Below, piece after piece: positions 1,380-32,665 of a stretch of 64,000 nucleotides of DNA. The notes under the pieces were generated by a model that saw only the letters and a program-made list of their open reading frames with translations, searched no databases and had not been told where the DNA came from. Position 1 is the stretch's first letter, and each line of letters begins with the position of its first letter. The translations under genes were made by a program, and so were the position numbers. The stretch comes from an uncultured delta proteobacterium (GTDB taxonomy: Bacteria > Desulfobacterota > Binatia > UBA9968): contig CAWJZV010000024.1 of assembly GCA_963847445.1 (NCBI GenBank), positions 32,001-96,000 on the forward strand. Reading direction: 5' to 3'.

Positions 1380-2304
1380 CTAGCGAAAAGTCTCCTTGAT
1401 GTAGCGGTACGCCGCGATGGCCGCAGTGGCTCCGTCGCCGGCGGAGGTGATCGCTTGGCGCGCCGAGTCCTCGCGGATATCGCCGACGGCGTAGAGGCCG
1501 TCGTCGCGCAGTCTTCATCCAGTTGTCCGTTGGGACATGGCCGCTGTCGCTCAGCTTTACGACATCACGCAATAACGCTGTGTTCGGCTGCAAGCCGACG
1601 TAGATGAAAAGACCGGCGAGCTCGACTTGAGAGGTTTCGCCGGATTTAAGGTCGCGGGCGCGCACGCCGGTGACGACTTCGTCGCCGAGAACTTCTTCGA
1701 TGACCGTTTGGTAGCGCGGCGTGATCTTCGCGTTGTCCAACACCCTTTGCAAATAGGTCTGCTGCGCGGCAAACGAATCGCCGTGATGGAAGAGCAATAC
1801 TTTCTCGGCGTAGTTCGTCAGCGTCAACGCTTCCTGCAGCGCCGAGTCGCCGCCACCGACGACGCCGACGGTCTGGCCGTTGTACATCGGGCCGTCGCAG
1901 CTGGCGCAATGGCTGACGCCGCGGCCCATGAGTTTTTCTTCTCCCGGGACGCCGAGATGCTTGAGCGTCGAGCCGGTGGCGACGATCACCGCCTTGGCCT
2001 GATAGCTTTCTTCCTCCGTGACCACCGACCAGAGTTTTTCTGCCGCATCGAGTCGCAAAACTTCGGCGCGCTGAAACTCCGCGCCATGGTCTGACGCCTG
2101 ACGCTGCAAGTTGGGGCAGATTTCATAGCCGGAAACGCCGTCGGGGAAACCGGGAAAGTCTTCGATCTTTTCAATGCTGATCAGATGGCCGCCGGGAATG
2201 TTCGATTCGAAAACCAAAGTCGAGAGTCCTTGGCGCGCCGAAAAAAGTCCGGCGGTGAGGCCGGCGAGGCCGGAGCCGACAATAATTACGTCGTAATCAG
2301 CCAT
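1380..2304 (-). CDS. trxB: Thioredoxin-disulfide reductase-like FAD/NAD(P)H oxidoreductase (frameshift near 1505)
   Basis: DVIIVGSGLAG FAD motif, SHCASCDG redox motif and VVGGGDSA NAD(P)H motif. The true C-terminus (GLYAVGDIR...QAITSAGDGATAAIAAYRYIKETFR*) is in another frame and ends at 1380. Confidence 0.85.
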
Positions 2305-2354
2305 GATTTGTTTCGTAAGGGGTGAAGGGTTAAGGGGTTAGGGGTTTCGATCGC

Positions 2355-2420
2355 CTCACCTCCCTCGCGACGCGGGGGAGGACGAGTGGGGATTGAACGG
2401 AGCGTAACGTTGAACGTTGA
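2355..2420. repeat. Partial GTTCAA/TTGAAC-family palindromic repeat
   Basis: cctccctcgcgacgcgggggagg hairpin followed by ttgaac units; same family as 27521, 34954, 36153 and 37363. Confidence 0.75.
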
Positions 2421-2430
2421 CCGCATGTCG

Positions 2431-4095
2431 TTATCTCCACTCATCCACCGACACCGTCTTTTGATAGTTGCAATCCATGATGCGCCAGTAGCCGTTGGTT
2501 TCGCCGCCGACGACGACGACGTGGATTTCTTCGGGCTTGAACATATGGATCATTTCGTCCGGGGCGGCTTTCAACTTCGACGCGTAGGGTTCTTCGCCGA
2601 AGGTGGCGCGCGGATAGATGTAATTCTGGATCAGCTGATAATCCCAGTATTCCTTCGCCGCCATGAGCGAATTTTCGTAGGCCCATTCGATCAGTTTCTC
2701 CTTAGTATCGAAACCGCCGCGGTCGATGAACTGGCGCGCGGTGATGGGATCGAGCAGGAAGGTCGGCTGGCTGTGGGCGTCGAGACCGCGCAGCATGCTG
2801 CGCACATGCTCGCGCCAATATTGCTCGCGCACGCCGAGGGTAAACGCCGTCGAGCGGCAGCCGGTGAATACGCTGACCGTGCTGTCGGTGGCTTTGAAGC
2901 CATGCTCGACGTGGAACGGCGTCCACGGACTGCGCTCTTCGTTCTCGGCGAAGGTCACGTTGTTGTAGGCGTAGTTGTTGCCCTGGGAGCCCATGTAGGT
3001 GACGCCGGGCACCGAGCTGCCCTGGCCGTTTTGCGAGAGCAGGCCGTAGGCGCGGCCGATGGTGGCGTTGGCGTGGTTGAACGGACCCATGGCGCCGGTG
3101 CCGCTGTTCATTTTGATTTCGTTTCGAATCGGCCCGTTGACCACGACCATGGCGGCCGCCGAGCTCGACGTGCTGCCGCGGGCGGTGACGCCGGTGGACG
3201 CGAGCGCCAGGATCACCGGAAAATATTCCGGCCGGGCGCCGGCCATCACCGCGTTGACCGCGACTTTTTCCACCGTGTATTCCCAGTATTCTCTGAAATG
3301 GGTCGAGCGCATATGGCCGACCACTTCATCGGGCTTGTGGCTGGTGTGGGCGAGCATTGCCGCCACGCGCTTTTCCGTCGGCAGGACGATGGGCAGCTTG
3401 TCGGTCCAATTTTTGTCGAGAAACAGCTGCTGCAAATTCTCTTCGCTATCGGCATCGACCAGGCGCGGCGTCGCGGCATGGGCGAATTTTTCACTGACAA
3501 CGCCGCTGTCGTCGATCGGTTGGGTCAGCCCTTCGATGACTTCCTGCATCACCGGCCGGCCGCTGAGCGGATCCTTGCCGTCGATGTAGGCGCGCAGTTG
3601 CTCGGCGGTCTTGCCCATCACCGGTTGCGGCACGAAGGCGCGCGGCGCCCGCGGCATGCCATGGACGCGGTTCACCGACTCGACGACTTTTTCAAACACA
3701 TGGGTGTGCAGCGCCACGGTGGGCACGCCGTACTTATTATCGAGGGTCATTGCATGCGCGGCGACCGCCGGCGCACAGGTGCTTCAATGACCGACACCGA
3801 CGATGGCGGCGTCGCCGTCCGCTTTGATTATCTCCCAGGTCTTGGGATCGTCCTTGGTGTAGACGTTGTTCATCTCGACGAACTTGGTTTTTACCGTCGG
3901 CATGTTGTCGGTGAACCAATTCTGCAACTGGCGCAGAAACAGTCCCGAGTCGTCGAAGCGCGGATCGACTAAATAGACGGTCTTGCCGTCCAAGCTGTCG
4001 AGCCGCGGCGCCAGCGCTTTGGGCGTGATCTTGGGCGGATAGCCCACCGGATTTAACACCGAAATGTTTTGGGTTGCGTTAGTGCTGTCAGCCAT
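2431..4095 (-). CDS. Selenoprotein with U-x-x-C motif (UGSC-like N-terminal domain fused to a WTDxLPIVxPT domain), 554 aa, Sec at codon 104
   Basis: ORFs 4095-3784 and 3750-2431 are in the same frame, separated only by TGA (3786-3784) plus 11 sense codons: ...AAIVGVGH-U-STCAPAVAAHAMTLDNKYGVPTV. RBS GAGGAGG precedes 4095 and a hairpin follows the UGA. Confidence 0.85.
3753..3777 (-). promoter_or_regulatory. Putative bacterial SECIS element
   Basis: Minus-strand UGUGCG-C-CGGC-[GGUC]-GCCG-CGCAUG hairpin. The apical loop starts 17 nt after the UGA and begins with G. Confidence 0.65.
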
Positions 4096-4182
4096 AGGTA
4101 AATCCTCCTCGCTTATTTACAACCGAAATATCACGGCGGTTGGCCGATTCCTAGCTAAAGATATTGGGCGAAAAACGGAAAA

Positions 4183-4438: not shown

Positions 4439-5509
4439 TTACTCGGCGAGAAGTTTTTTCACTCTCTCGATCACCTCGGCGCTCTGGTCCATGACTTCGC
4501 GCGCGAGCTTTTGCAACTGCTCTCCCGGCGTGTAGTCGATATCCAGGTTGCTCTTCTTCACCTCGGCAAGCAACTCGGGATCCTTGAGCGCTTGCGCATA
4601 AGCGGCGCGCAGGATCTTCACGAGGTCGGCGCGCGTGCCCGGCGGGGCGATCAGCGCGCGGCCAAAATCATTCGCCGTGAGCACCGTTTCGGCGACACTC
4701 CGGCTCACCTGCGGGGTCTTGTATTCGCTCATGATCTCCCAGATCGTCGGCGTCTCGGGCAGCCTCGGGTCGCGGCTGCGCGCGTCCTGCACCAGATGGC
4801 GGTCGTAACCTTTCGCGTGCCATGTGTTAAACGGTTCACGGCCGAAGTGAGATGAGATGTCATGACCGCGGCAGACGACCTCGCCCTTTTCCACGGCAAG
4901 ATCGATTTCTTTGCCGCCGGCGTAACCGACGATGACATTGAATTTCGCGCCGACGGTTTCCTCTAGAATCTTGGGTAAAATGTAGCCAGAGCTGGCAAAG
5001 CCCGAGGCGCCGCATTTCGGCGGCTCTTTCGCCTTGATGACATCGCCGATGGTTTTGAAAGGAGCGTCGGCGCGAAAATAGAGCATCTGCGTCCATTTTT
5101 CTTGGCTGCCGATCCAGTCGAATTTGCGCACGTCGAACTTGACCTCGGTGCGTCCGACCAGTTGGGTTAGATAGAGGCTGCTATTCGGTATGCCGACGGT
5201 GAGGCCGTCCGGTTTGGCGACGCTGTAAACGTAGTTGGCCGCCACCACCGAGCTGGCGCCGGGCATGTTTTGCACGATCATGTTCGGGCGCCCGGCAATG
5301 AATTTCGGCATGCTCCGGGCGAACATGCGCGCCCATTGATCGGACAAACCGCCGGCGGTGAAACCGACGATAATCCGAATCGTCTTGCCTTGGTAGTAGG
5401 GCTCCGTTTGCGCCTGACCTGGAGCCGTTAGGGCTGCGCAGAGCAGAACCGAGATCAAAGCCAGCGCATATTTCGACGCGCGTGACAGGAATGGAAATTT
5501 TTCAAACAT
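4439..5509 (-). CDS. Tripartite tricarboxylate transporter substrate-binding protein (TctC/Bug family)
   Basis: Signal peptide, then YYQGKTIRIIVGFTAGG, VQNMPGAS, AKPDGLT, GYAGGKEIDLAVEKGEV. The start is likely MFEKF at 5509; the upstream ORF extension is repeat DNA. Confidence 0.9.
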   Translation of the reverse strand: MFEKFPFLSRASKYALALISVLLCAALTAPGQAQTEPYYQGKTIRIIVGFTAGGLSDQWARMFARSMPKFIAGRPNMIVQNMPGASSVVAANYVYSVAKPDGLTVGIPNSSLYLTQLVGRTEVKFDVRKFDWIGSQEKWTQMLYFRADAPFKTIGDVIKAKEPPKCGASGFASSGYILPKILEETVGAKFNVIVGYAGGKEIDLAVEKGEVVCRGHDISSHFGREPFNTWHAKGYDRHLVQDARSRDPRLPETPTIWEIMSEYKTPQVSRSVAETVLTANDFGRALIAPPGTRADLVKILRAAYAQALKDPELLAEVKKSNLDIDYTPGEQLQKLAREVMDQSAEVIERVKKLLAE

Positions 5510-5574
5510 TTTATACCTCAGAAGAGAAGGGAGATTACCACAAAGTCTGTCCTGAGCGTATGCGAAGGAACTGA

Positions 5575-5855
5575 GTCGCGCAAAGGGCGCAACGAAGATT
5601 TCCAAATGGTAGGGGCGGGTTTCAAACCCGCCCTCTGGGAGTTGGGGCATCGACAAATTGCGCGCAAGCCGCGCCAGGGTTCGGATGAGGGCGCGCGCAT
5701 GCTGTGCTTCTGCGTCGTGAAAACAATACTTCACCCTTCGCTGTGAGGAAGGGCATATGCCATACGCCCCTACTAAAGAGATCCGAACTTTGCGCCCTTT
5801 GCGTGCTTCGCGTGAGATATTCCGAAATTTGGTTGCGGCTCTGCCGCGTTAGGCC
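5575..5855. repeat. Composite intergenic repeat cluster
   Basis: gtaggggcgggtttcaaacccgccc REP (also ~22078 and ~51686), gggcatatgccatacgcccctac, ctttgcgccctttgcg units, and ttggttgcggctctgccgcg (also ~22153 and inverted at ~60886). Confidence 0.7.
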
Positions 5856-6035
5856 TCTGTAGTTAAATGCTCTTCCTACCCGAGAGCTCATTTTTGACCG
5901 CGCCGGCGGTCTATATATCTTCAGCGCAATCTGCCATCGATCGTCCTTGACGTTCAAATTCGATCTGCCTTATGGTGCAGATCGCTCGGGTTTCGTCGAC
6001 TGGCTTGGCGTTTTGGAATTCATAACGGAGGCGAT

Positions 6036-7068
6036 ATGAAAAACATCTACGCGTCCTTCATCCTACTTCTCGTTTGGGGCGCCGAAGGCTGCGGCGCAGA
6101 CTCCCTACTTCCAGGGTAAGACCATAAGAATTGTCGTCGGCTATCCCACCGCCAGTGCCCATGACCAATGGGCGCGCTTGATTGCGCCGCAGTTGACCAA
6201 ACATATTCCGGGAAATCCCGCCACCATCGTGCAAAACATGCCCGGCGCCGGCTCGTTGACCGCGACCAATTATGTTTACAGCGTGGCCAAGCCCGATGGC
6301 TTGACTCTCGGCGTCAACAACGCGGCGCTTTACTTCGAACAGCTGCTGAAAAAGAAGGAAGTTCAGTTCGATTGGGCGAAGTTCACCTGGGTCGGCAGCA
6401 CGACGCCGACGAGTCCACTCCTGTACATGTGGGCGAACACACCCTACAAAACCATTCACGATGTGCGCACGGCGTCGGTGGCGCCGAAGTGCGGCGCGAC
6501 CGGCACGGGCAACACCGGCTACTATCTTCCCAAATTGCTCGAAGAGACCATCGGCGCGAAGTTTCAGATCGTTTTGGGTTACGAAGGCGGCGCGAGTATC
6601 GAGTTGGCCGTGGAGCGCGGCGAGGTGCAGTGCCGCGCCTTTACCATTCAGGTGTTTTTTGGCCGCGAGCCGTTTCATACCTGGCGCAGCAAGAACCTGG
6701 TGCGCGTGCTGGTTCAAGGCGGCAAGAAGCGCGATCCGCGCTTGCCCGAAACGCCGCTAATCAGCGAACTGATGGATCAATACAAGGTCTCGGAAGCCAA
6801 TCGCCGTTTGGTGACCGTGATGATGGGATCGGGTGAGTTCGGCGCCGCGCCGATGTTCGCGCCGCCGGGGACTTCGCCGGAACTGACCAAAATATTGCGC
6901 GCGGGTTATGCCAAAGCGCTCACCAGCCCTGAGCTCATTGCCGACGCCAAAAAGCAGGGTCTCGAACCTGAGTTGATTCCCGCCGAAGAGATCGAAGCAC
7001 TTGCCAAGGAAGTGTTGACCCAGCCGGCCGATGTGATCGCGTCGATGAAGAAAGTCATGGGAGAGTGA
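6036..7068 (+). CDS. TctC/Bug family substrate-binding protein (frameshift near 6087)
   Basis: RBS GGAGG, MKNIYASF signal peptide, then QTPYFQGKTIRIVVGY...KHIPGNPATIVQNMPGAG...KPDGLT in the frame of ORF 6178-7068. Confidence 0.88.
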
Positions 7069-7071
7069 AGA

Positions 7072-7151
7072 TTGGAGTGATGGAGTATTGGAGTGTTGGG
7101 TCTCGGAACTCCGAAAACCCATGACTCCATACTCCAGTACTCCATATTCCA
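7072..7151. repeat. GGAGT/ACTCC 8-bp-periodic palindromic repeat
   Basis: ttggagtgatggagtattggagtgttggg...actccatactccagtactccatattcca; second copy at 26681-26788. Confidence 0.8.
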
Positions 7152-7153
7152 GT

Positions 7154-7222
7154 CTTCTTCACCGTCTTCCCGCCCCACAGGCTGTCGAAGAAGCCGCTTT
7201 TCTCCATCTCGTCGAGATAGCG
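7154..7222 (-). pseudogene. Orphan 3' end of an NMT1-like SBP gene
   Basis: Encodes RYLDEMEKSGFFDSLWGGK. 7185-7222 is identical over 38 bp to 7442-7479 in the neighbouring gene. Confidence 0.7.
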
Positions 7223-7416
7223 CTCAGCGTCCGTCATACCGTTGGAAAACGGTATCCAGGGGATGGATGGACCCCGGTTTTCACCGGGGTGACGATGATA
7301 AGGCGGGAATGACGTCGACTTCTAGTCGATGTTCGCCGCCTCGGCCTCGAACAGACGATTATCAAGACCTCTCGCGTTTTGGGTGAGAGTCGTCAAGTTA
7401 CCGGCAACTTGTTGGG

Positions 7417-8409
7417 CTATTTTTTGGAGCTCCAAATATTTTCGAAGAAGCCGCTTTTCTCCATCTCGTCGAGATAGCGGCGGTCGATGAGCTGCTGGGG
7501 TTGAACTTTCTTGGCGCGCGGGTCGTTGATGGCGAGCTCGTCGAGGATCGCTTGCAGCGCTTCTGGCCGCACGTCGAATCTCGGCTCCATGGCTTTGAGT
7601 TCGTTGTTGTACGAGGTTTCGAGGACTTTGCGATCGCTGACGCGCAAGTACTTGGCTAAAATCTTCAATGTCGTTTCCCTCTCAGCGTGAAAAATCTTCG
7701 ACGCCTCGGCCATCGAGCGCATGAACTGGCCGATCACCTGCGGTTTGCGCGCGATCACGGAACGCCGGGAGACGAAAGCCGCGGCGGCGTAGGGAATGCG
7801 CAGGTCGGGGCCGTAGATCAAATAGTGAAACCCTTGGGCGACGGCGTTTTGACCGTAGGTCAGCATCGCCGAGGCGTCCACCGAGCCATTGAGCAGCGCG
7901 ATCAGGTCGGCGGCATCGCCGCCGGTCTGGCGAAAGATCACATCCTTGGCCGGGTCCAAGCCGATACGCTGCAAAACTTGGATGGCGAAATAATGGTTGT
8001 TGCTGCCGAGGCGGTTGACGCCGATGCTTTTGCCTTTGAGATCTTCCGGCCGTTTGATCTCCGGCTTGGCGACGATGCTGTGCGTCAGAATATTCTTTAC
8101 CGCGCCGACGATGACGAAGTCCTGGGCGCCTTGGACATAGGCACTCAGGATGCCGATGCCGCCGATTATTCCGACGTCGGTTTCCCCGCCGATCATGGCT
8201 GCGGCAGCAGTGCTGGCGGAGCGCATGAGCACCAGATCGAAGTCGAGATTATGCTTGCGAAAGATGCCGGCATCGCGGGCGATCCAGGGCAAGGATTGCG
8301 AAATTGCGATGGCCGAGTGAATGCCGATGAGCTTGTCGGCGCCGGCCGCGTTGTGCAATGGCAAGACGATGAGCAGGAAACCAAGAACGGCGATTCTGTG
8401 GACTCGCAT
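7417..8409 (-). CDS. ABC substrate-binding protein, NMT1/THI5/SsuA-like
   Basis: Signal peptide; LPWIARDAGIFRKHNLD, DLKGKSIGV, C-terminal IDRRYLDEMEKSGFF. Confidence 0.88.
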   Translation of the reverse strand: MRVHRIAVLGFLLIVLPLHNAAGADKLIGIHSAIAISQSLPWIARDAGIFRKHNLDFDLVLMRSASTAAAAMIGGETDVGIIGGIGILSAYVQGAQDFVIVGAVKNILTHSIVAKPEIKRPEDLKGKSIGVNRLGSNNHYFAIQVLQRIGLDPAKDVIFRQTGGDAADLIALLNGSVDASAMLTYGQNAVAQGFHYLIYGPDLRIPYAAAAFVSRRSVIARKPQVIGQFMRSMAEASKIFHAERETTLKILAKYLRVSDRKVLETSYNNELKAMEPRFDVRPEALQAILDELAINDPRAKKVQPQQLIDRRYLDEMEKSGFFENIWSSKK

Positions 8410-8579
8410 AGGCCAGGGCTCCCTTCGCTGGTTCCGGATAGCGCACGCTTACGCTTCCGTTGCACTCGCGTCAATTGAATTCTAGCGGTTTACGAGTTCC
8501 CCATTTGAAAAATCTGATCATGGGCGACATATCATTGGCTGGACACAGAGCTGACGAAGTAAATTGCGAGCGATGATCG

Positions 8580-8730
8580 ATTCCCCCTTTGGAAAAGGGG
8601 GATTCAGGGGGATTTGATTGTGGTGTGGGGCGGATTCTTCGCAGCGGATCGGCTAACGTCTTCGACCGTGAAGCCGCATGAAAGAAAAAAATCTCCCCTG
8701 CCCCTCTTTTCCAAAGAGGGGTAACGGAGA
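8580..8730. repeat. CCCCCTTT..AAAGGGGG palindromic repeat
   Basis: ttccccctttggaaaagggggattcagggggattt...aaatctcccctgcccctcttttccaaagaggggtaacgga; related copy at 11290-11460. Confidence 0.75.
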
Positions 8731-8898
8731 ACTCGCCACGACTTGAGCGGTTAACCAAATTTCATTGTGTCTCCCACGCCCGCCGTGTCCAACCGAGGCT
8801 TATGGCTAACGATGAGTTCTTAAAGGAGAGGTAATACTTGGCGCTTGCGCCAGTTCTCGAATATGATGCAGCGACTTTCGCCGGATGAGTGGTGCTAA

Positions 8899-9909
8899 AT
8901 GACGAAACTTCGATCGATTCCGTTCTTGATTTTGCTGTTTTGCTCGCCGTTGGTTGCGCTAGCTGCCGCGGCGGCGCCGGTGCGCGTCAATATCGGCGCT
9001 GCTTCGGTGAGCAGCAGCATGCTCAGTCTGTGGGCGGCGCAGGAGCAGGGGCTGTTCGCCAAGCATGGCATCGACGCGCAGTTGATTTTAATTCGCGGCG
9101 GCTCGACGCTGGTGGCGAGCTTGGTCACCGGCGAGATTCAGCTGGCGTTTACCTCTGGTGTATCGGTGCTCGGTGCGGCGGCCCAGGGTGTCGACGTGAA
9201 AATGCTGACTTCTATTTCGAGCCGGGTGAGTTGGAAGCTCGTCGCCAATCCGCAGATTAAAACCGCCGCCGAGCTGCGCGGCAAGCGCTTCGGCGTGCAA
9301 AGCATCGTCGGCAGCACCTGGATGTACGCGATGCTGGCGCTGGAGCAGTTGGGATTAGAACCGAAGCGCGACAACATTTCCTTTCTGCCGATCGGCGATG
9401 CCGTGACCATCGGTCATTCACTTGAAGCCGGCCGTATCGACGCCGCGGTGCTCGACCCGCCGCTCAGCCGGCGGCTCACCGGCAAAGGCTTTTCCCAGTT
9501 GGTCGATCTCGCCAAGACCAATGCAAGTTTCCCTGGCTTGGGCGTCGGCGTGACGCGGAATTATCTCGATCAGCAGCCGACGACGCTTGAAAAAGTTGTT
9601 ACGGCCTTGACGGAAGGATTGGCGTTCGCTCAGTTGCCGGCCAACAAGCCGGTTGTCCTGAAAATTCTCATGAAGCATCTGCGTGTCACCGACTCGGTCG
9701 TCGCCGAAGATGGCTATCAAGATCATCTGTCGACGCTCAACCGTAAGCCTTATCCCTCGCTCGACGGTCTGCGCAGCGCGCAAAGATTGATGGCCCAGCA
9801 GAATCCGAAGATCGCGACGCTCAAGGTGGAAGATTTGGTTGACGCGCGGTTTGTGCGCAAGTTGGACGAGAGCGGGTTCATCGACCGGCTGTACGGCGGG
9901 CAGCGCTGA
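8899..9909 (+). CDS. ABC substrate-binding protein, NMT1/THI5/SsuA-like
   Basis: LWAAQEQGLFAKHGID, ELRGKRFGV, KPYPSLDGL, VDARFVRKLDESGFIDRLY. Confidence 0.88.
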   Translation: MTKLRSIPFLILLFCSPLVALAAAAAPVRVNIGAASVSSSMLSLWAAQEQGLFAKHGIDAQLILIRGGSTLVASLVTGEIQLAFTSGVSVLGAAAQGVDVKMLTSISSRVSWKLVANPQIKTAAELRGKRFGVQSIVGSTWMYAMLALEQLGLEPKRDNISFLPIGDAVTIGHSLEAGRIDAAVLDPPLSRRLTGKGFSQLVDLAKTNASFPGLGVGVTRNYLDQQPTTLEKVVTALTEGLAFAQLPANKPVVLKILMKHLRVTDSVVAEDGYQDHLSTLNRKPYPSLDGLRSAQRLMAQQNPKIATLKVEDLVDARFVRKLDESGFIDRLYGGQR

Positions 9910-9936
9910 GGGCGTTGTTTGGATTCGGATTTCCTC

Positions 9937-10072
9937 CCGCAAAGGCGCAAAGGTGACGGGCGAGGCCCGTCATCCCGAGCGAATGCGATGGATCTAAGAA
10001 GATTTCTCCCTACGGTCGAAATGACAGAATTCCGAACTTAGCGTCTTTGCGCCTTTGCGAGATAAATTCCGA
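9937..10072. repeat. CGCAAAG/CTTTGCG-family repeat with internal GTCATCCCGAG...GAAATGAC unit
   Basis: cgcaaaggcgcaaag...gtcatcccgag...ggatctaagaagatttctc...cgaaatgac...ctttgcgcctttgcgaga. Copies at 43531-43670, 48760-48900 and 55272-55460. Confidence 0.78.
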
Positions 10073-10167
10073 GTATTCAGTACATGAAACCCAGAAGAGC
10101 TCGGTTTGAATCGGCGGTGGGATTGCGATATTCGCTGAATATACAATCATATTTTCGGAGGTAGATC

Positions 10168-10909
10168 GTGTTGGAAAACAAAGTGGTGGTGATTACCGGC
10201 AGCGGCCAGGGCATCGGCAAACATGCGGCGATGACTTTCGCCAAGGAAAAGGCGAAAGTGGTGATCGCCGACTTCAACTGCCGACTTGGCGAAGAAGACA
10301 GCCACGGAGCTGAGCGCGCTGACGGAAACCATGGCGGTCCATGCGGACGTGCGCGAAGAAGAAAGCGTCAAGAAACTGATCGACCAAGTGATCGGCCGCT
10401 TCGGCCAGATCGATGTGATGATGAACAACGCGGCGATCGTGCCGCACTTCGCCTGGAACATCCCGCGCTGGCCGCTGATCGCCGACATGCCGTTGGAATT
10501 TTGGGATCGGGTGGTCAAAACCAACCTTTACGGCACCTTTTTCGGCACCAAGCATGCGATCCCGCATATGGTTAAGCGGAAGTCCGGCCACATCATTAAC
10601 CTGTACGGCGGCGGCGGCGTGAAGCCGGGCGGCGCCGGCACCTATATGGTGACCAAGGACGGCATTCGCACGTTCTCGCGTTACGTCGCCGAGGAAGTGC
10701 GCGACGCGAATATTTGCGTCGTGACCTTTTCGCCGCGCGTGCCGATCGCCACCGAGACCGCGCCGGCGGAAGCGATCCAACGGTTGCCCGGTCCCGAAGT
10801 GCTGGGCACGGGATTCGTGCTGTGCGCGCAGTTGCCGATGGAGCAGAGCGGCAAGTGCTTCGCCTATGAGAACGGCAAGCTGGTGGCTGAAACGGTGCGG
10901 GAAGGGTGA
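10168..10909 (+). CDS. Short-chain dehydrogenase/reductase (frameshift near 10280)
   Basis: VVVITGSGQGIG Rossmann motif, NNAA, YMVTK (YxxxK). Confidence 0.85.
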
Positions 10910-11125
10910 GAAGAAGGCGTGCGGCAACAGGCGGCCGGGAATGCAGGGACGGACCGTCGCCTGCCCTGAGCCGAGTCGAAGGGTGTCCGCCCGTTCTGAG
11001 GGCCGACACGCAGGTCGGCACCTACACGCGTCCGAATTGAAAATGGGTCAGGGTGCCATTTGTTTGTTGCGCGCCCTCACCTCTTTCCTCTCCCAGAGGG
11101 AGAGGAAGAAGCAACTGAAAAACTG

Positions 11126-11283
11126 ATGACGAAGAAAATCACTCGGCGAGATTTTTGCTCGATGCTCTTGGCTGATCCCTTTTCAGCCCAGGCGCAACAG
11201 GCAGGGAAAATCTTCCGCATCGGTTTGCTGGATGTAAGCACCGCTTCCGGTATGGCGGTTCTCATCGATGCGTTTCGGCAGTG
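11126..11283 (+). pseudogene. 5' fragment of an ABC_sub_bind-type SBP, truncated by a repeat
   Basis: MTKKITRR...AQAQQAGKIFRIGLLD...LIDAFRQ, running directly into the 11290-11460 palindrome. Confidence 0.7.
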
Positions 11284-11289
11284 GGATCA

Positions 11290-11460
11290 AGGGGGATTTG
11301 ATTGTTGTGTGGGGAGGTTTTCTTTGAAGCAATCGCGCCGTGATTTGTGACGATGGAGCCGCATGCACGCAAAAAATCTCCCCTGGCCCCTCTTTCCCGA
11401 AGAGGGGTAACGGATAACTTGCCTGGATGGGTAACGATGAGCTTTTTCAAAGGGGGGATT
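11290..11460. repeat. CCCCCTTT..AAAGGGGG palindromic repeat
   Basis: gggggatttgattgt...gccgcatg...aaaaaatctcccctggcccctctttcccgaagaggggtaacgga; matches 8607-8730. Confidence 0.72.
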
Positions 11461-11519
11461 AATCGAATGGATGCTTCGATTTGTTTTAACTTCTGGGTTA
11501 GGACAGTAGGGAGTCAAAG

Positions 11520-12539
11520 ATGAAAGTTATCGATGCGGATGCCCATGTGATCGAGAATGAGTCGACTTGGGATTACATGCTGGAGTCGGAGAAGGCGTTC
11601 AAACCGAAGATCGTCGGCGCGAGCAATGGCAAGGATGCGTTCGACTACTGGATGATCGACGGGCGGGTGATTCCGCGCAACAACGTCGGCCGCGATCTGC
11701 CGGTGGAGTCGCGCGAGATGAGCGATCTGAGCGCGCGGATCAAGCATATGGACGAGTTGGGCATCGACTTCCAGGTGATCTATCCGACGTTTTTTATCAC
11801 GCCGGTGAGCCGGCGGCCGGACATCGATCTCGCCGTTTCGCGCAGCTACAACCGCTGGATGGCCGACATCGTCAAAAAGCAGCCGGATCGTTTTCGCTGG
11901 GTGCTGGTGCCGCCGCTGCAAAGCCAGGAGCATCTGTCGGAGGAATTGAAGTTCGGCAAGGAGAACGGCGCCTGCGGCGTCTATATGCGCGGCTTGGAGT
12001 GCGAGCGCAGCCTAAGCGATCCTTACTTCTATTCACTGTACGAGCAGGCGAGCGCGCTCGATCTGCCGATCTGCGTGCACTCGGCCAACGGCGCGTTTAC
12101 CACCTACGATTTTTTCGCCGACGATCCGGGTTTTACTAAGTTCAAGCTCGCCGTCATCGGCGCGTTTCATTCGCTCGTGTTTCACGCCATCCCGCAGCGC
12201 TTTCCCAAGTTGAAGATCGGCATCATCGAAGTCAGCGCCCAATGGATTCCCTACGCGGTGCACGATCTGTCGCGGCGCTTCGCCCGGCGCGGCCGGACGT
12301 TCCCGCAGAATATTCTCAAAGAAAATCGCATTTACGTGACTTGCCAGACCGATGACGATCTCGACCAGGTGCTGCGTTACGCCGGCGACGATAACCTGGT
12401 CATCGGCACGGACTACGGCCACGCCGACAATGCCGCCGAGATCGAAGCGCTGCGCAAGCTGCGCACCGACGGCAAAATCAGCGGACGGGTGATCGACAAG
12501 ATCTTGCAAGATAATCCGTCGGCGTTTTACGGGTTATGA
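11520..12539 (+). CDS. Amidohydrolase family protein (Amidohydro_2; decarboxylase/hydratase-like)
   Basis: IDADAHV metal motif, QVIYPT, YNRWMAD, LPICVH, RFPKLKIG, GTDYGHAD. Confidence 0.88.
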   Translation: MKVIDADAHVIENESTWDYMLESEKAFKPKIVGASNGKDAFDYWMIDGRVIPRNNVGRDLPVESREMSDLSARIKHMDELGIDFQVIYPTFFITPVSRRPDIDLAVSRSYNRWMADIVKKQPDRFRWVLVPPLQSQEHLSEELKFGKENGACGVYMRGLECERSLSDPYFYSLYEQASALDLPICVHSANGAFTTYDFFADDPGFTKFKLAVIGAFHSLVFHAIPQRFPKLKIGIIEVSAQWIPYAVHDLSRRFARRGRTFPQNILKENRIYVTCQTDDDLDQVLRYAGDDNLVIGTDYGHADNAAEIEALRKLRTDGKISGRVIDKILQDNPSAFYGL

Positions 12540-12555
12540 AATCAAAAGAGGATTC

Positions 12556-12750
12556 TCTCGCAAAGGCGCAAAGATGCCAAGAAAATGAATTCGAAGCACG
12601 AAATCCGAAATTCCGAAACAAATTCAAATGATCGAAAATCAGAAAATTCCAAACGGGCCCGACTCGGATTCGAAGTTTTGGATTTTCCGTCTTTGTGAAT
12701 TATTTTGGCCGCGGTTTGTTTCGGATTTAGATATTCGAATTTCGGATTTA
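12556..12750. repeat. CGCAAAG unit plus CGAAAT/ATTTCG palindrome
   Basis: ctcgcaaaggcgcaaag; ttcgaagcacgaaatccgaaattccgaaacaaattcaaa...tttgtttcggatttagatattcgaatttcgga. Confidence 0.72.
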
Positions 12751-12766
12751 TTTAAGGAGGTTGCAG

Positions 12767-13806
12767 ATGTTAAGTATCGATGCTGACGCGCATGTGATCG
12801 AGTGCGAGAAGACTTGGGATTATTTAGAAGGCGCCGACAAGCGCTATCGGCCGGTGCCGATCGCCGTCGACATGCCGACCGGCAAGAAGAGCAACTTTTG
12901 GATCATCGGCGGGCGCTTGATCGGCGGGCGCGACAACATCGGCCAGGACACCTCGAAGGAATCCCGCGAGATGGCCAACATCGACTCGCGGTTGAAACAT
13001 ATGGACGACATCGGCACCGGCGTGCAGGTGCTCTATCCGACGTTGTTTCTTGCGGCCGGTGACCGACAATCCGCGCATCGAGCTGGCGCTGTGCAAGTCC
13101 TACAACCGCTGGATGGCGGATATTTGGTCGAAGGATAAGAAGCGTTTGCGCTGGGCGGTGCAGTTGCCGCTGTTGACCATGGACGCGGCGCTTGGATGAA
13201 TTGCGCTGGTCCAAGGGCAACGGCGCCTGCGCGGTGTTCATGCGCGGCATCGAGACCAATCACGTGCTGCACGATCCGTACTTTTTCCCGCTCTACGAGG
13301 AGGCGAGCCGGCTCAATCTGCCCATCGGCATTCACTCCGGCATCGGCAACTTCACCGTCAACGACATGCTCGGCGCCGAGCCGTTTCGCGTCGCCAAGCT
13401 GATCGTCATCGGCGGCTTTCACTCGATGATCTTGAACGGCATCCTGGAAAAGTTTCCCAAGCTGCGCGTCGGCGCTATCGAAGTGGCGGCGCAGTGGGTG
13501 CCGTATATCGTGCACGATTTGAATCTGCGTTTCCCCAAGCTCGAAGGCAAAGAAGCGCGGCCCGACGTCTTGACCGGCAGCAGCCAGTTGTTCGTCGCCT
13601 GCCAGACCGACGACGACCTGCCCTACGTGCTCAAGTACGCCGGCGAAAATTGCTTGATGATCGGCTCGGACTACGGCCACGCCGATAATGCCAGCGAGTT
13701 GCTCGCCTTGGCGAAGTTGAAAGAAACCAGTGACATCGATCCCAAAGTGATCGACAAAATTCTGACTTACAATCCGGCGAAGTTTTACGGGCTGGATGTG
13801 GATTGA
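12767..13806 (+). CDS. Amidohydrolase family protein (Amidohydro_2), frameshifted near 13050 and 13190
   Basis: RBS AGGAGG; IDADAHV, QVLYPT, LPIGIH, KFPKLRVG, GSDYGHAD. Paralog of 11520 and 59820. Confidence 0.82.
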
Positions 13807-14044
13807 GAAACGTGATCGTGTTCGTGATCGTGGCTCGTGGTCGATTGGACGTGCTCGAAAGCGCTGCGTTGTCCCTTTGAGTTTCCCCTCGCCCGTTGCG
13901 GGAGAGGAGGGTGAGGGTTCTTGTAGGGCGATCGGCGGTCGCCCTTGCCCTCATCCCTGCCTTCTCCCAGAGGGAGAAGGGGTAAGACATCTCGAGTGAG
14001 GATTGACCCTAGCCGAAAGACAAACTAAATCGATGAGTGAAATC

Positions 14045-15196
14045 ATGGCTGATACTTACGATTTACTTTTGACCGGCGGCACGGTGGTCAATCCGGCGAC
14101 CAAGACCAATGAGAAACTCGACGTCGGCGTCAAAGGCGATCGGGTCACGGCGATTCAAGCGAGCATTCCGCGCACCGAGTGTCAAGCGCGTCATCGATGT
14201 CACCGGCTGCTACGTGACGCCGGGGTTGATCGACTTCCATGTGCATAGTTACTGGGGAGTGAATCCCTACGGCTGCGATCTCGACGCGCTGTGTCTTGCC
14301 ACCGGTGTGACCACGCGCGCTCGATGCCGGCTCGGCCGGGCCGGTGAACCTGCTCGGCTTTCGCAAACTCGTCTACGAGCGATCGAAGACGCGCATGATC
14401 GGTTTCGTCGCGTTGGCGCAGCATGGCGTGCTGCAACGAACCGGGCGAGCTGCTTAATTTGGGCTTCGCCGACTTGCGACGGCTCGGCGCAAGCGGTGAT
14501 CGACAACCGCGACATCGGCGTCGGCATCAAAGTCCGGTTGCACAAGAAATCCATCGGCGATAACAGCCGCGAAGCCTTGCGCCTGGCGATCAAGGCCGGC
14601 GAAGCGTCGGGCACGCCGATCATGGTCCATGTCGGCAGCACGGCGATCGGCATGGACGAGATCGCCGACACGTTGCGGCCGGGCGACATCATCACGCACT
14701 GCTACACGCCGCAGAAGCCGTCGATCATCGACGACAAGGGTAAGCTGCTGCCGCTCGTGCGCAAGGCCAAAGAGCGCGGCGTGATCTTCGATGTCGGCCA
14801 TGCCGGCGGCCATTTCGATTTCGCTCTGGTCGAGCGCGCCATGGGCGAGGGGATCATGCCCGATATCATCAGCTCGGACCTGCACGGGCGCTTGAGCCAG
14901 CCGGGCTTTGGCGTCGTCGGCGATTTACCGACGGTGCTGACTAAGTTCATTGCCGCTAGGCTTGAGCTTCGATGAGATTATCGCCAAGCTGCACGGTCGA
15001 CGCCGCGCAAGCGGTTGGCTGGCAAGACCGTATCGGCAGTCTCGAAGTCGGCCGCGAAGCGGATATCGCCGTGCTGCAAATCGTCGACGATCCGGTGACG
15101 CTGCACGACTCCGTCGGCGGCGAGAAGTTGCACAAGCAACGCATCGCCGCCAAGTGGACCGTCCGCGCCGGCGAAGTGTTTCAAGGCCGCGGGTGA
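14045..15196 (+). CDS. Dihydroorotase-like amidohydrolase/deacetylase, several frameshifts
   Basis: DLLLTGGTVVNP, PGLIDFHVH, GIKVRL, MVHVG, GDIITHCY, FDVGHAGGHF, ISSDLH, IGSLEVGREADIAVL. Confidence 0.82.
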
Positions 15197-15517
15197 GATA
15201 GGATTCGGAATCGGGATTTGACCACAAAGAGCGCAAGCCGGATTCGGACGTATTGCAACGCCGAGGTGCGGTCGGCAATCGCAGATGCGAATTCACCAGG
15301 CGCGCAAATTTCAGAATCGCAAAGGGCGCAAACTTCGAAGGGAAATCGTTGGGGCGTATGGCATACGCCCTGGGGTGGCGGAGAGGCGAACGCGTCGCCA
15401 CAGGATTTGCGAAGACGACGCTAATTCATTAGGAAAGTTATACGAAGGACAGAAAGGGTTCCATCGTAGGGGCAAAGTCGTGGCTTGCCCATTAATCGCG
15501 TGGAGAAAGAGGGAACA

Positions 15518-16549
15518 ATGCGAAAAGCAATTCGACTTTCATTATTGATGCTGATGGCAACGGTTGCGACCGCGGCGGCGCAGACGCCTTACTATCAAGG
15601 CAAGACGATCACGATCATCACCGGCAGCCAGACCGGCGACGTTTTCGATATCTTTGCGCGCATGATCGCGGCGCATATGGGCAAGAATATTCCCGGCAAT
15701 CCTAACATCGTCGTGCAGAATATGACCGGCGCCGGCCATATCGTCGCGGCGAATTTCGTTTATAGCGTCGCCAAACCCGACGGTCTGACGCTGCTCGCGC
15801 CCAACCCCAATCTTTACGTCGATCAACTGATCGGCCGGCCCGAGATCAAATTCGACTGGGCAAAGTTTGCCTGGCTCGGCAATGCTCAACGCACGACGGA
15901 CATGCTCTACATGCGCACCGACGCTCCTTTCAAAACCATGGAAGATGTGCGCAGCGCCAAGGAGCCGCCGAAATGCGGTGCCACCGGCACCGGTACCACC
16001 GGATTCATGGTGCCGCGGCTGTTGGATGAAACCATCGGCGCGAAATTCAATGTGATTACCGGTTACAAGGGCGGCAACGAAGTTGACTTGGCGGTGGAAC
16101 GAGGGGAGATCCAGTGCCGGGCCTTCAGTGTTACGGCCTTCTTCGCTCGCGAGCCTTTTCATACCTGGCGCAAAAACAACTTTGCGCGGGCGATTATCCA
16201 AATGGGCCACAAGCGAGATAGCCGGTTGCCTGATGTGGCGACGCTCAATGAATTGATGGAAAAATATAAGACTCCCGAAATCAGCCGTCGCGTGGCGTTG
16301 GTGGTAACCGCATCGGAAATCTTTCAACGCCCTTACATGGGCCCGCCGGGCTTGCGCCCCGAGCTGGTGAAAATTCTCCGCGAAGCGTTTCAGAAGACGC
16401 TGAAGGACAACGCGTTTTTGGAAGACGTAAAAAGCAAGAAGCTCGATGCCGAGTACACTTCCGGCGAAGAGATGGAAACCATGGCCAAAGAGATGATGTC
16501 GCAGCGGCCGGAGGTTGTCGAACGATTGAGGAAAGTGTTGGGAAACTAA
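15518..16549 (+). CDS. TctC/Bug family substrate-binding protein
   Basis: AQTPYYQGKTITII, IPGNPNIVVQNMTGAG, KPDGLT, GYKGGNEVDLAVERGE. Confidence 0.9.
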   Translation: MRKAIRLSLLMLMATVATAAAQTPYYQGKTITIITGSQTGDVFDIFARMIAAHMGKNIPGNPNIVVQNMTGAGHIVAANFVYSVAKPDGLTLLAPNPNLYVDQLIGRPEIKFDWAKFAWLGNAQRTTDMLYMRTDAPFKTMEDVRSAKEPPKCGATGTGTTGFMVPRLLDETIGAKFNVITGYKGGNEVDLAVERGEIQCRAFSVTAFFAREPFHTWRKNNFARAIIQMGHKRDSRLPDVATLNELMEKYKTPEISRRVALVVTASEIFQRPYMGPPGLRPELVKILREAFQKTLKDNAFLEDVKSKKLDAEYTSGEEMETMAKEMMSQRPEVVERLRKVLGN

Positions 16550-16614
16550 GATGGCAAGTAAGGCAATCTGTCCAGGGGCCGATAGGCCGTGTCCCTGCAC
16601 TTCGGAGGTTTATC

Positions 16615-31579: not shown

Positions 31580-32665
31580 ATGAAAAGAATCTTTATGAAT
31601 AATGATAGGAAACCAGATAAATCAGCGCCGCGGCATAGCTCGGCGTTAGTCGTCGCCGTCATGCTATTGGCCGCACCGGCGTTTGCCCAGACGCCGTTTT
31701 ATCAAGGCAAGACGATCACAATGGTCGCTAGCACCGCGCCAGGAGGGACTGGGGACCTGCGAGTTAAAGCCATGGTTCCCACGCTGCGCAAACATATTCC
31801 CGGCAATCCCACTATCATCATCGAGTACATGGACGGCGGCGGCGGGCGCAAGGGGGCCAACTATTTGTATCGCAACGCCAAGCCCGACGGCTTGACCATC
31901 GGTGCGCTCAGCGGCGGCATCGTCGGGCTGCAAGTCATGCGCGAGAGCGGCGTCATGTACGATATCGACAAATTCATTCAACTGGGCACGCCCGAAAGCA
32001 CCAACCATTACACGATCTACACGCGCAAGGAGCTGGGCGCCAATAACGTCGAGAAACTGCGCGCCTTAAGCGGCATGCGCATCGGCGCCCAATCGGTGGG
32101 TCATGTGTCCTACATCGCCGGGCGGCTTTTTGCCTATCTTTTCGGGTTAAAGCAGCCGCAGTTTATTGCCGGATACACGGCGCCGGAAGTCGACGCGGCG
32201 CTCTTGCGCGGCGAGCTCGATGCGCGGGCGAACAACGCCGCGTCGGTGTTGCGGCGCAATCCGGATTGGCTCGATAAAGGGGACATGGATTTTCACTCCA
32301 TCATGGAAGTGCCCAAGGGGATCAAGCATGCCAAGCTCGGCCATCTGCCGGAGATCGAGAGCTTCGCCAAGAACGACAAAGAAAAAAAGCTGGTCGCCAT
32401 GTGGCGTGGGTTCCGGCTCGTCGGCTCGCCCTACATGCTGCCGCCGGGAACACCCAAAGATCGCGTCGACGTGCTGGAGGATGCCTTTCGCAAGACCTAT
32501 CGAGATACGGAGTTTCGCAAAGACTTTCTGAAACTGGTCGGCGATGACGCCGAACCGATGATGCCTGAAGAACTCGCAAAGGTGATCCGCGAGATACCGC
32601 GCGATGCTGAGGTCGTCGAATTATTGAGAAGTCTGGCCGGTGCGCGGCCGCTGCCGGCGCGGTGA
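31580..32665 (+). CDS. TctC/Bug family substrate-binding protein
   Basis: AQTPFYQGKT, KHIPGNP, KPDGLT, LPPGTPKDR, ARPLPAR. Confidence 0.88.
   Translation: MKRIFMNNDRKPDKSAPRHSSALVVAVMLLAAPAFAQTPFYQGKTITMVASTAPGGTGDLRVKAMVPTLRKHIPGNPTIIIEYMDGGGGRKGANYLYRNAKPDGLTIGALSGGIVGLQVMRESGVMYDIDKFIQLGTPESTNHYTIYTRKELGANNVEKLRALSGMRIGAQSVGHVSYIAGRLFAYLFGLKQPQFIAGYTAPEVDAALLRGELDARANNAASVLRRNPDWLDKGDMDFHSIMEVPKGIKHAKLGHLPEIESFAKNDKEKKLVAMWRGFRLVGSPYMLPPGTPKDRVDVLEDAFRKTYRDTEFRKDFLKLVGDDAEPMMPEELAKVIREIPRDAEVVELLRSLAGARPLPAR

Follow-up and report, generated by a model that had tools for sequence, protein, structure and literature searches.

The 64,000-nucleotide stretch of DNA analysed here (the window: positions 32,001 to 96,000 of contig CAWJZV010000024.1 in assembly GCA_963847445.1, from an uncultured member of the Binatia) almost certainly encodes, on its minus strand between positions 4095 and 2431, a real selenoprotein of the UGSC family, as judged from the conservation of a single in-frame UGA codon, predicted to be read as selenocysteine (Sec, U), and of the sequence around it. 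The family to which the gene belongs is known, has already been named and is very widespread; the gene is followed on the same strand by a gene for a thioredoxin reductase (TrxR)-like flavoprotein. Taken as a whole, these observations are best explained, in our opinion with fair probability, by a selenoprotein that would act together with a dedicated TrxR paralog as an electron relay to a substrate. The features on which this reading is built are the following (window coordinates):

2431..4095, minus strand: long-form UGSC family selenoprotein gene (554 codons plus stop, ATG at 4095-4093)
3784..3786, minus strand: UGA codon predicted to be read as Sec, U104 in GVGH-U-STC (TGA or TGC at this codon across loci)
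3754..3776, minus strand: putative bacterial selenocysteine insertion sequence (SECIS) hairpin with its GGUC apical loop at 3766-3763 (folding and Sec-specific conservation)
3589..4059, minus strand: UGSC domain, residues 13-169 (Pfam PF24696, 82.1 bits, cut-off 25)
2434..3483, minus strand: C-terminal domain, residues 205-554, ~350 aa (no Pfam family)
1380..2304, minus strand: CASC-type TrxR-like flavoprotein gene, a divergent TrxB paralog (TIGR01292, Pyr_redox_2)
4104..4110, minus strand: Shine-Dalgarno-like GAGGAGG, 8 nt 5' of the ATG (direct sequence reading)
2305..2430, minus strand: intergenic spacer of 126 nt with short direct and inverted repeats (length not conserved)

The list of open reading frames (ORFs) contains two separate entries in this region, of 103 aa (3784..4095, minus strand) and 439 aa (2431..3750, minus strand), which lie in a common frame. 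Translation with TGA as U joins them into a 554-residue protein whose sole non-standard step is U104 in GVGH-U-S-T-C, and bears out the claim of the initial annotation that one reading frame is here broken by a single TGA at 3786-3784. The same annotation had called the gene hidden, which is accurate for a plain ORF caller only, the fused ~550-aa form being very common and already named by NCBI. A database search returned more than 6000 relatives: the closest ones (80-95% identity) are 438-441-aa models that start at the first Met past the TGA (such truncated models, in which a gene caller has cut the gene at the UGA, are common in databases), and those at 65-72% identity are full-length (~550 aa). 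In the alignment, the full-length homologs carry Cys exactly at position 104 (GVGHCSTCAP).

The codon was followed across genomes at two depths. When 61 genomes from the order of the source organism were searched in six frames, 26 of 26 near-full-length matches of 70-100% identity (the source genome, G000, and 25 others) had exactly one TGA and no other stop, and the same codon is TGA in all 20 close loci that were fetched (GVGH*STC); leaving out two genomes flagged as unpublished, G005 (locus L036) and G035 (one row), the counts become 24/24 matches and 19/19 loci. The wider sample comprised the best 80 loci among one-genome-per-species contigs (full-length matches, 64-97% identity), which by their record titles belong to Binatia/"delta proteobacterium", Chloroflexota, Rokubacteria, Acidimicrobiales, Latescibacterota, Alpha- and Betaproteobacteria, Actinomycetota (Agromyces) and others. 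Position 104 is encoded there by TGA in 46 loci and by TGC (Cys) in 34, which are the two states for which the initial annotation had proposed to check homologs, and neither another stop (TAA/TAG) nor a frame break occurs at this position in any of the 80. An in-frame UGA thus stands at a Cys-aligned position with conserved coding on both sides. As the same TGA recurs in 20/20 orthologous and 46/80 wider loci, the pattern is far beyond chance. Positions 3428-4013 are also covered, without a gap and with two mismatched letters, by an independent contig from a different study (run X3, record 24); of the 40 differences that are listed out of 143, none falls on 3784-3786, which agrees with the TGA without proving it. 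Contigs of an RNA library (run X16) were considered as evidence of transcription and rejected, as they match only in short pieces at 90-95% likeness. We also observed, at G025:C50:1283-2965, a full-length paralog (53% identity) with two in-frame TGA codons, possibly a two-Sec variant or a broken copy.

Immediately past the TGA, folding confirms the hairpin with a G-starting loop that the initial annotation had placed 17 nt downstream: it is composed of 6 bp, a bulged C, 3 bp and a GGUC loop (UGA-to-loop spacing 17 nt), with a minimum free energy (MFE) of -14.2 kcal/mol for 3779-3752. In E. coli, the fdhF SECIS element likewise combines a bulged base with a GGUC loop. The published consensus for bacterial SECIS elements asks for a loop of 3-9 nt with G at its first two positions, a spacing of 16-37 nt and an MFE <= -7.5 kcal/mol (PMC13188914), and the hairpin agrees with it on all four counts (4-nt loop, GG start, 17 nt, -14.2 kcal/mol). 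Moreover, the 16-mer GCGCCGGCGGTCGCCG inside the hairpin is present exactly in 43 of 46 Sec loci and in 0 of 34 Cys loci. Sec and Cys forms alike encode A-P-A-V-A at this site, the Cys forms with mixed synonymous codons; the three Sec loci without the exact 16-mer (L071, L073 and L080) have other sequences there. Furthermore, a run of six codons (+14 to +29) shows no third-position variation among the 20 close loci, and of the other 34 third positions in these loci only 3 are invariant. Sequence comparison therefore places on the Sec forms, and on them only, a constraint that acts at the RNA level, in line with a functional SECIS element.

The machinery for Sec insertion, which the initial annotation had proposed to look for in the genome, was recovered in part: selA (570 bits), selB and selD (360 bits) stand in a row on contig 14 of the source genome. 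The selD gene (G000:C14:194887-195726), directly after selA and selB, itself has an in-frame TGA, as expected of the Sec-containing form of selenophosphate synthetase. Several observations count against the proposed explanation. The folding energy of the hairpin is ordinary for GC-rich sequence (z = -0.57), and because it is by itself not unusual, it is the comparative signal that carries the weight; selB is collinear yet divided into at least 4 separate frame pieces, selA is broken near its end, and no intact tRNA-Sec was found in the 91.8%-complete assembly (Rfam, no match over the gathering score), in which only a 3' remnant of the gene is present. The only Sec-type call by ARAGORN (G000:C2:139122-139203, 82 nt) was rejected for its weak AT-rich acceptor stem, its poor T-stem and the lack of an Rfam match at E<=1. 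All ten congeners of at least 95% completeness (G005 included) have a tRNA-Sec (73-77 bits), and the remnant, the last ~28-32 nt of the gene at C12:77574-77605, is identical to theirs; unrelated AT-rich DNA stands where the 5' part of the gene would be. At a distance of 45 nt there is a gene for a tyrosine integrase (Arm-DNA-bind_2 77.8 bits, Phage_integrase 33.7 bits; region G000:C12:77574-78841, locus L147:5575-6841). Since elements that integrate into tRNA genes usually leave such a 3' remnant beside an integrase, this arrangement suggests that an element has entered tRNA-Sec and that an intact copy is to be expected at its other end, apparently unassembled, which would explain the absence of the intact gene from the assembly.

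Frameshifts are frequent in this assembly (window trxB-like gene, 1504-1506; selA/selB, G000:C14:191492-194790; housekeeping trxB, G000:C44:53835-54741). We take these frame breaks to be assembly indels and not gene decay, because independent contigs restore the frame of the trxB-like gene and orthologs read through; for selB this is an assumption. The opposite explanation, by which the TGA would be a genuine stop or a sequencing error, and the region two genes (103 and 439 aa) or a pseudogene in a genome that has perhaps lost Sec decoding, could appeal to the selB that lies in several frames, to the unassembled tRNA-Sec and to the frameshifts in several genes. It is nevertheless highly improbable, and we consider it largely refuted already: the Pfam UGSC domain (residues 13-169) extends across the TGA, the same TGA is found in each of the orthologs of 70-97% identity and the hairpin is conserved specifically in Sec forms, the trxB-like frameshift is absent from independent contigs and thereby points to assembly indels and not to gene decay, selD has an in-frame TGA of its own, and the tRNA-Sec remnant by the integrase suggests an intact gene beyond the assembled contigs.

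The N-terminal part of the protein places it in the UGSC family. Pfam PF24696 matches the N-terminal 204 residues alone with 85.2 bits, and no other Pfam family matches this part at E<=10; the NCBIfam equivalog NF041046 gives 54.2 bits, under its cut-off of 125, despite which several ~550-aa homologs are named 'UGSC family (seleno)protein' by NCBI. Like the family at large (PF24696/NF041046), the protein has the N-domain match (82 bits), the UxxC motif and Cys in homologs; it differs in length (~550 aa and not ~150-190 aa) and in its tetrapeptide, the literal U/C-G-S-C being replaced by U-S-T-C here and by C-S-T-C in the Cys forms, with the UxxC pattern kept. We consequently regard the window protein, on its sequence, as a divergent long-form member of the UGSC family. 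The initial annotation had described a UGSC-type Sec domain fused to a large second domain, which agrees with the layout found (PF24696 over residues 13-169, followed by a C-terminal domain of ~350 aa); the novelty that it implied was overstated, as the family is widespread and named and a UGSC/Unknown_1 fusion had been reported by 2008 (PMC2398784). In that report (Zhang & Gladyshev 2008), the UGSC-containing protein is a major selenoprotein family of ocean metagenomes, with 255 Sec and 21 Cys sequences and the motif UxxC (PMC2398784); according to reviews from 2022 and 2026, its function is still uncharacterised (PMC9312934, PMC13188914).

The full-length AlphaFold2 (AF2) model (predicted local distance difference test, pLDDT, 93.5; predicted template modelling score, pTM, 0.91) gives the N-terminal domain as a parallel alpha/beta/alpha sandwich of flavodoxin/CheY-like type, with Sec between strand 96-102 and helix 107-121. 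Its structural neighbours in a VIA search are CheY-, flavodoxin- and Rossmann-like (best 8s7v_H, Z 10.7, root-mean-square deviation (rmsd) 4.2 A over 137 aligned residues), many further rows being generic alpha/beta sandwiches at Z 8-9. No thioredoxin fold is found among the top 50 VIA matches to residues 33-198 (search with the whole 554-aa model). The sandwich predicted for this domain may differ from the thioredoxin-like fold that was proposed for UGSC proteins in 2008 (PMC2398784).

Downstream of the selenoprotein gene, and in agreement with the initial annotation, the next gene on the same strand is of the CASC TrxR type and starts at 2304, after a gap of 126 nt. With 122.7 bits to Pyr_redox_2 (PF07992) and a redox CxxC, its product is a TrxR-type flavoprotein of low relative molecular mass (low-Mr). 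As an equivalog of TrxB it falls short (TIGR01292: 282 bits, plus 31.5 for a shifted tail; cut-off 343.45), so that the CASC-type reductase of the initial annotation stands as a flavoprotein and has to be read as a divergent paralog, and one with a frameshift that had gone unmentioned. The gene changes frame near 1504-1506 in the assembly through one extra base: the table-11 ORF extends to 1180, and the conserved C-terminus (DGLYAVGDIR...KETFR*), separated by the frame change from the N-terminal 262 residues, stops at 1382-1380 in the other frame. Contigs from two other runs have one base fewer at 1504 or 1506, which restores the frame, and orthologs read through.

The adjacency, whose conservation the initial annotation had proposed to test, recurs at both depths of sampling. 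A TrxR-like gene lies downstream on the same strand in 16 of the 20 close loci (in two of the four loci without it the contig ends within ~230 nt of the selenoprotein gene, which leaves 16/18 testable) and is immediately adjacent on the same strand in 27 of the 80 wider ones (mostly downstream, four upstream), or in 25 of the 68 with at least 900 nt on both sides. The adjacency spans Sec and Cys forms and four phyla; among Cys forms it occurs in 14 of 34, labelled Chelativorans, Sphingomonas, Bradyrhizobium, Roseomonas, Agromyces, Methylocella and Terripilifer. When the ORFs of the 80 loci were clustered, the TrxR-like cluster was the only neighbour common across lineages, the others being lineage-restricted (TctC, NMT1, other solute-binding proteins, ATP-binding cassette (ABC) ATPase, MetE-like, GFO/IDH/MocA, short-chain dehydrogenase/reductase (SDR), enolase-type, major facilitator superfamily (MFS) and others); the picking of neighbour ORFs included spurious antisense ORFs in GC-rich loci (cluster 1), and weak neighbours may be missed. 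Against TIGR01292 the adjacent copies score 260-320 bits (316 and 320 for the intact ones, 260-280 for the others), and a canonical TrxB (384-419 bits) is encoded elsewhere in 5 of 5 other genomes examined, as it is on contig 44 of the source genome. Because of these sub-cut-off scores and of the canonical TrxB elsewhere, we consider the adjacent gene a paralog and not the housekeeping trxB. Where CATC is usual, the adjacent copies have CASC or CAAC as their active site; 15 of them share GRGVSHCASCDG without variation.

A physical contact between the two proteins is predicted. Modelling used a natural pair in the Cys form, that of locus L095 (TrxR-like protein with flavin adenine dinucleotide (FAD) and UGSC residues 1-200, with an alignment for each protein), the reductase of the window's own pair being frameshifted and its partner needing a recoded TGA. 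The complex scored 0.64, with 0.14 for the best of 3 controls, a mark that is reached by 58 of 80 solved complexes and by 2 of 110 mismatched pairs in a calibration made without ligands or user alignments. The runs have at least 49% of their contacts in common, with a partner pLDDT of at least 82, and the confident interface would join TrxR-like residues 133 and 135-137 (C-A-S-C-D) to UGSC residues 99-102 (C-S-T-C, the equivalent of U104-C107 in the window protein). The initial annotation had suggested docking the protein to TrxR, and in this model the two redox motifs are indeed in contact.

On these grounds we propose the following mechanism. The UGA at 3786-3784 would be recoded to Sec through the SECIS hairpin that lies inside the coding sequence just downstream; electrons would then pass from NAD(P)H to the FAD of the TrxR-like protein, from FAD to its CASC disulfide, and from CASC directly to the U104-C107 selenenylsulfide, without a separate thioredoxin; the reduced Sec/Cys pair would finally deliver two electrons to a small substrate bound by the C-terminal domain, possibly a carboxylate, as malonate and solute-binding-protein gene neighbours weakly hint. 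The early steps of this relay follow what is known of the low-Mr TrxR family together with the predicted interface. For the NAD(P)H to TrxR to Sec-protein module that the initial annotation had put forward, the recurrent adjacency and the predicted contact of the redox motifs argue in favour; we infer the direction of electron flow, the catalytic role of the C-terminal domain and the class of substrate, and for the substrate step we do so from the fusion of the two domains.

That the TrxR-like neighbour is the direct reductant of the UGSC protein seems to us somewhat more probable than its being otherwise, and several points weigh on the other side. No TrxR-like gene occurs in the 4-kb flanks of about two thirds of the wider loci (e.g. 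all Rokubacteria, most Chloroflexota and Xanthobacteraceae), hence the pairing is not obligatory in cis; the pair that was predicted is a Cys form from another organism, and not the window's own, modelled with user-supplied alignments and with a ligand; and, as TrxR-thioredoxin complexes have been solved, the complex score may owe part of its value to likeness. An adjacency confined to 27 of 80 loci would also suit a flavoprotein that serves only the same pathway, acting on thioredoxin, on a small thiol or on a pathway product, and such a role would fit the hallmarks of low-Mr TrxR which the neighbour keeps (316-320 bits to TIGR01292 over its full length), as well as the 53 of 76 predicted contacts that are confident in run 1 of a prediction that deviates from the calibration of the tool. 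We judge such an indirect role improbable, in view of the complex score (0.64 vs 0.14 for the best control, both CxxC motifs in the interface), of the retention of a distinct paralog alongside the gene in Binatia, Chloroflexota, Alphaproteobacteria and Agromyces, and of the lack of any thioredoxin-like gene among the conserved neighbour clusters of the 80 loci.

The C-terminal domain has no Pfam match at E<=10, and a representative search collects 3977 clusters at 50% identity (E<=0.001), which take in stand-alone proteins of ~355-400 aa and fused ones of ~550 aa. The AF2 model of the domain alone is confident (pLDDT 94.5), and Foldseek finds nothing for it in PDB at E<=0.001; the best match, class I fumarate hydratase, was rejected as its fold (E 1.4e-3, template modelling (TM) score 0.27, rmsd ~16 A), and a serine hydroxymethyltransferase-like fold proposed by Foldseek for the full model was treated as noise (TM 0.14-0.17). 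A wide VIA-align search reached at best Z 5.4, restricted to a 71-residue sub-domain, a profile search against PDB sequences found no match with E below 0.2, and in the ESM Atlas the domain matched unannotated clusters of 353-384 aa only and nothing among the named clusters. As modelled, the domain is thus without a clear relative of solved fold, while the searches do not establish a new fold. It is probably the 'Unknown_1' of the 2008 paper.

That this domain forms the substrate-binding catalytic part of a reductase is a tentative proposal to which we give somewhat less than even chances. Two considerations count against it: the domain has no usable fold or family match, so that its substrate and chemistry have to be inferred, and CxxC is missing in at least 10 of 17 inspected distant full-length homologs (30-50% identity), which means that the two-domain scaffold can work without the redox centre. 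The two-domain homologs that lack CxxC/UxxC are P0125, P0139, P0147, P0212, P0230, P0235, P0255, P0257, P0259 and P0267 (alignment A4). By its distribution in sequences, the redox centre is a feature of the U/CSTC subfamily, and the C-terminal domain may carry out a separate chemistry, with the Sec centre in an assisting or regulatory role.

These distant homologs, at least 10 of 17 of which keep both domains without CxxC, lead to a further alternative, in which the selenoprotein is real and its redox centre is not a catalytic relay: the C-terminal domain would serve as a binding module or as an enzyme without redox chemistry, and the U/CxxC pair as a redox switch or a peroxidase-like antioxidant site that the TrxR-like protein resets. 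It would accommodate the polar, non-Cys character of the positions that are broadly conserved in the C-domain (T, S, N, R, E, D), where T231/D232/T240/S312/N343/R348/E384 make up a conserved cluster, and the existence, in the same genomes, of stand-alone C-domain proteins of ~355 aa with no UGSC gene nearby (e.g. G000:C26:63027-64028). Within the U/CSTC subfamily, in contrast, the motif is invariant across phyla, Sec is kept in 46 of 80 loci, which would be costly for a mere switch, and a dedicated reductase is predicted to be co-transcribed in many lineages; we therefore rate this alternative as unlikely, and retain the electron relay as the better explanation.

Two known systems offer comparisons. 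The pair resembles TrxB/TrxA in that an NAD(P)H-dependent CxxC flavoprotein is encoded beside a dithiol acceptor, with a predicted interface that joins the CxxC motifs; in AhpF and NTRC, the flavoprotein reductase is fused to its dithiol acceptor. It departs from TrxB/TrxA in that the acceptor is no recognisable thioredoxin and the reductase has CASC/CAAC instead of CATC and scores under the TrxB cut-off. Glycine and proline reductases are reduced through the thioredoxin system and cleave small carboxylate substrates reductively, and their operons often include trxB. The likeness to their subunits GrdB and PrdB (of the glycine/sarcosine/betaine and D-proline reductases) would be one of working principle only, by analogy between UxxC selenoproteins (the UxxC motif of PrdB is listed in Table 2 of PMC2398784). 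The differences are that the window protein has no GRDB (PF07355) or Gly_reductase Pfam match at E<=10, that genes for GrdA-like or pyruvoyl subunits are not nearby here, and that the hosts are mostly aerobic/soil lineages and not amino-acid-fermenting clostridia.

The surroundings of the gene differ among lineages. Window positions 4439-16600 are dense in genes for TctC-family and NMT1/THI5-like solute-binding proteins, with Amidohydro_2 and an SDR, and genes of these families also lie around the paralogs on other contigs; the Binatia loci in general have TctC/NMT1-type solute-binding and Amidohydro_2 genes around them, families that are abundant throughout the genome regions viewed. Besides the window gene, two UGSC domains are encoded in the source genome, each containing an in-frame TGA (146 and 133 bits against the Pfam model), located at G000:C36:14404-16168 and G000:C15:55975-56484, as well as the stand-alone C-domain gene mentioned above (G000:C26:63027-64028); the neighbours of the paralogs include NMT1-type binding proteins, Amidohydro_2 and a cupin. 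In one of these copies a UGSC domain is followed by a C-domain in two frames, either a fused paralog broken by frameshifts or a split pair; its interpretation as a split UGSC + C-domain pair (the C36 copy) was dropped, as it could equally be a fused paralog broken by assembly frameshifts. Turning to the spacer between the selenoprotein and reductase genes (2305-2430), the initial annotation's 'mostly repeat DNA' is roughly right: we mapped a 15-nt direct repeat in two copies (2316-2345), a GC-rich hairpin with 11-nt arms and without a T-run (2359-2381) and an AACGTT-type palindrome (2408-2423). The corresponding gap in other loci measures 13 to 314 nt, and its length is hence not conserved.

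Gene order is conserved between loci labelled Chelativorans (Alphaproteobacteria, L095:1046-7344) and Agromyces (Actinomycetota, L113:1231-7275), where malonyl-CoA decarboxylase, malonyl-CoA synthase (780 and 703 bits to NF005702), long UGSC (Cys form), TrxR-like and GntR regulator genes follow one another. The malonyl-CoA decarboxylase cluster is found in 4 of the 80 loci, and the shared order suggests a transferable operon that may be connected with malonate metabolism. A MetE-like gene (cobalamin-independent methionine-synthase family; NF005085 413 bits in L102) is located near the long UGSC gene in 7 loci of several lineages (L049, L052, L084-L086, L102 and L118). Prompted by the matA-matB-UGSC-trxR-gntR operons, one may go further and speculate that UGSC and CASC-TrxR make up a thioredoxin-independent, two-protein NAD(P)H reductase widespread in soil bacteria, whose C-terminal domain would be a catalytic module of new fold acting on a carboxylate (possibly malonate-related) that the Sec/Cys centre cleaves or reduces, in a function like that of GrdB/PrdB; we put this forward as a conjecture that is rather unlikely to hold in full.

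As far as our limited searches reach, the pairing with a CASC-type TrxR paralog and the predicted contact of the redox motifs may be new, as may be the prediction of a non-thioredoxin fold, the C-terminal domain without a solved relative and the malonate-operon context of some Cys forms; in the accessible portions of the UGSC selenoprotein literature, no mention of a dedicated reductase was found. The UGSC family ranks with the most abundant selenoproteins predicted for prokaryotes from environmental data, and it has no assigned function (PMC2398784, PMC13188914). Cys-form pairs are present in cultured bacteria (labelled Chelativorans sp. J32, Bradyrhizobium sp. C9, Sphingomonas sp., Roseomonas sp. 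and Agromyces sp.) and can be expressed without selenocysteine machinery, which makes the function of the family testable in these organisms, and the malonyl-CoA synthase/decarboxylase operons of some Cys forms give a hint of where the substrate may be sought. Taken together, a dedicated reductase encoded beside the gene in four phyla and the predicted contact between the two redox motifs would offer a testable handle on the function of UGSC proteins.

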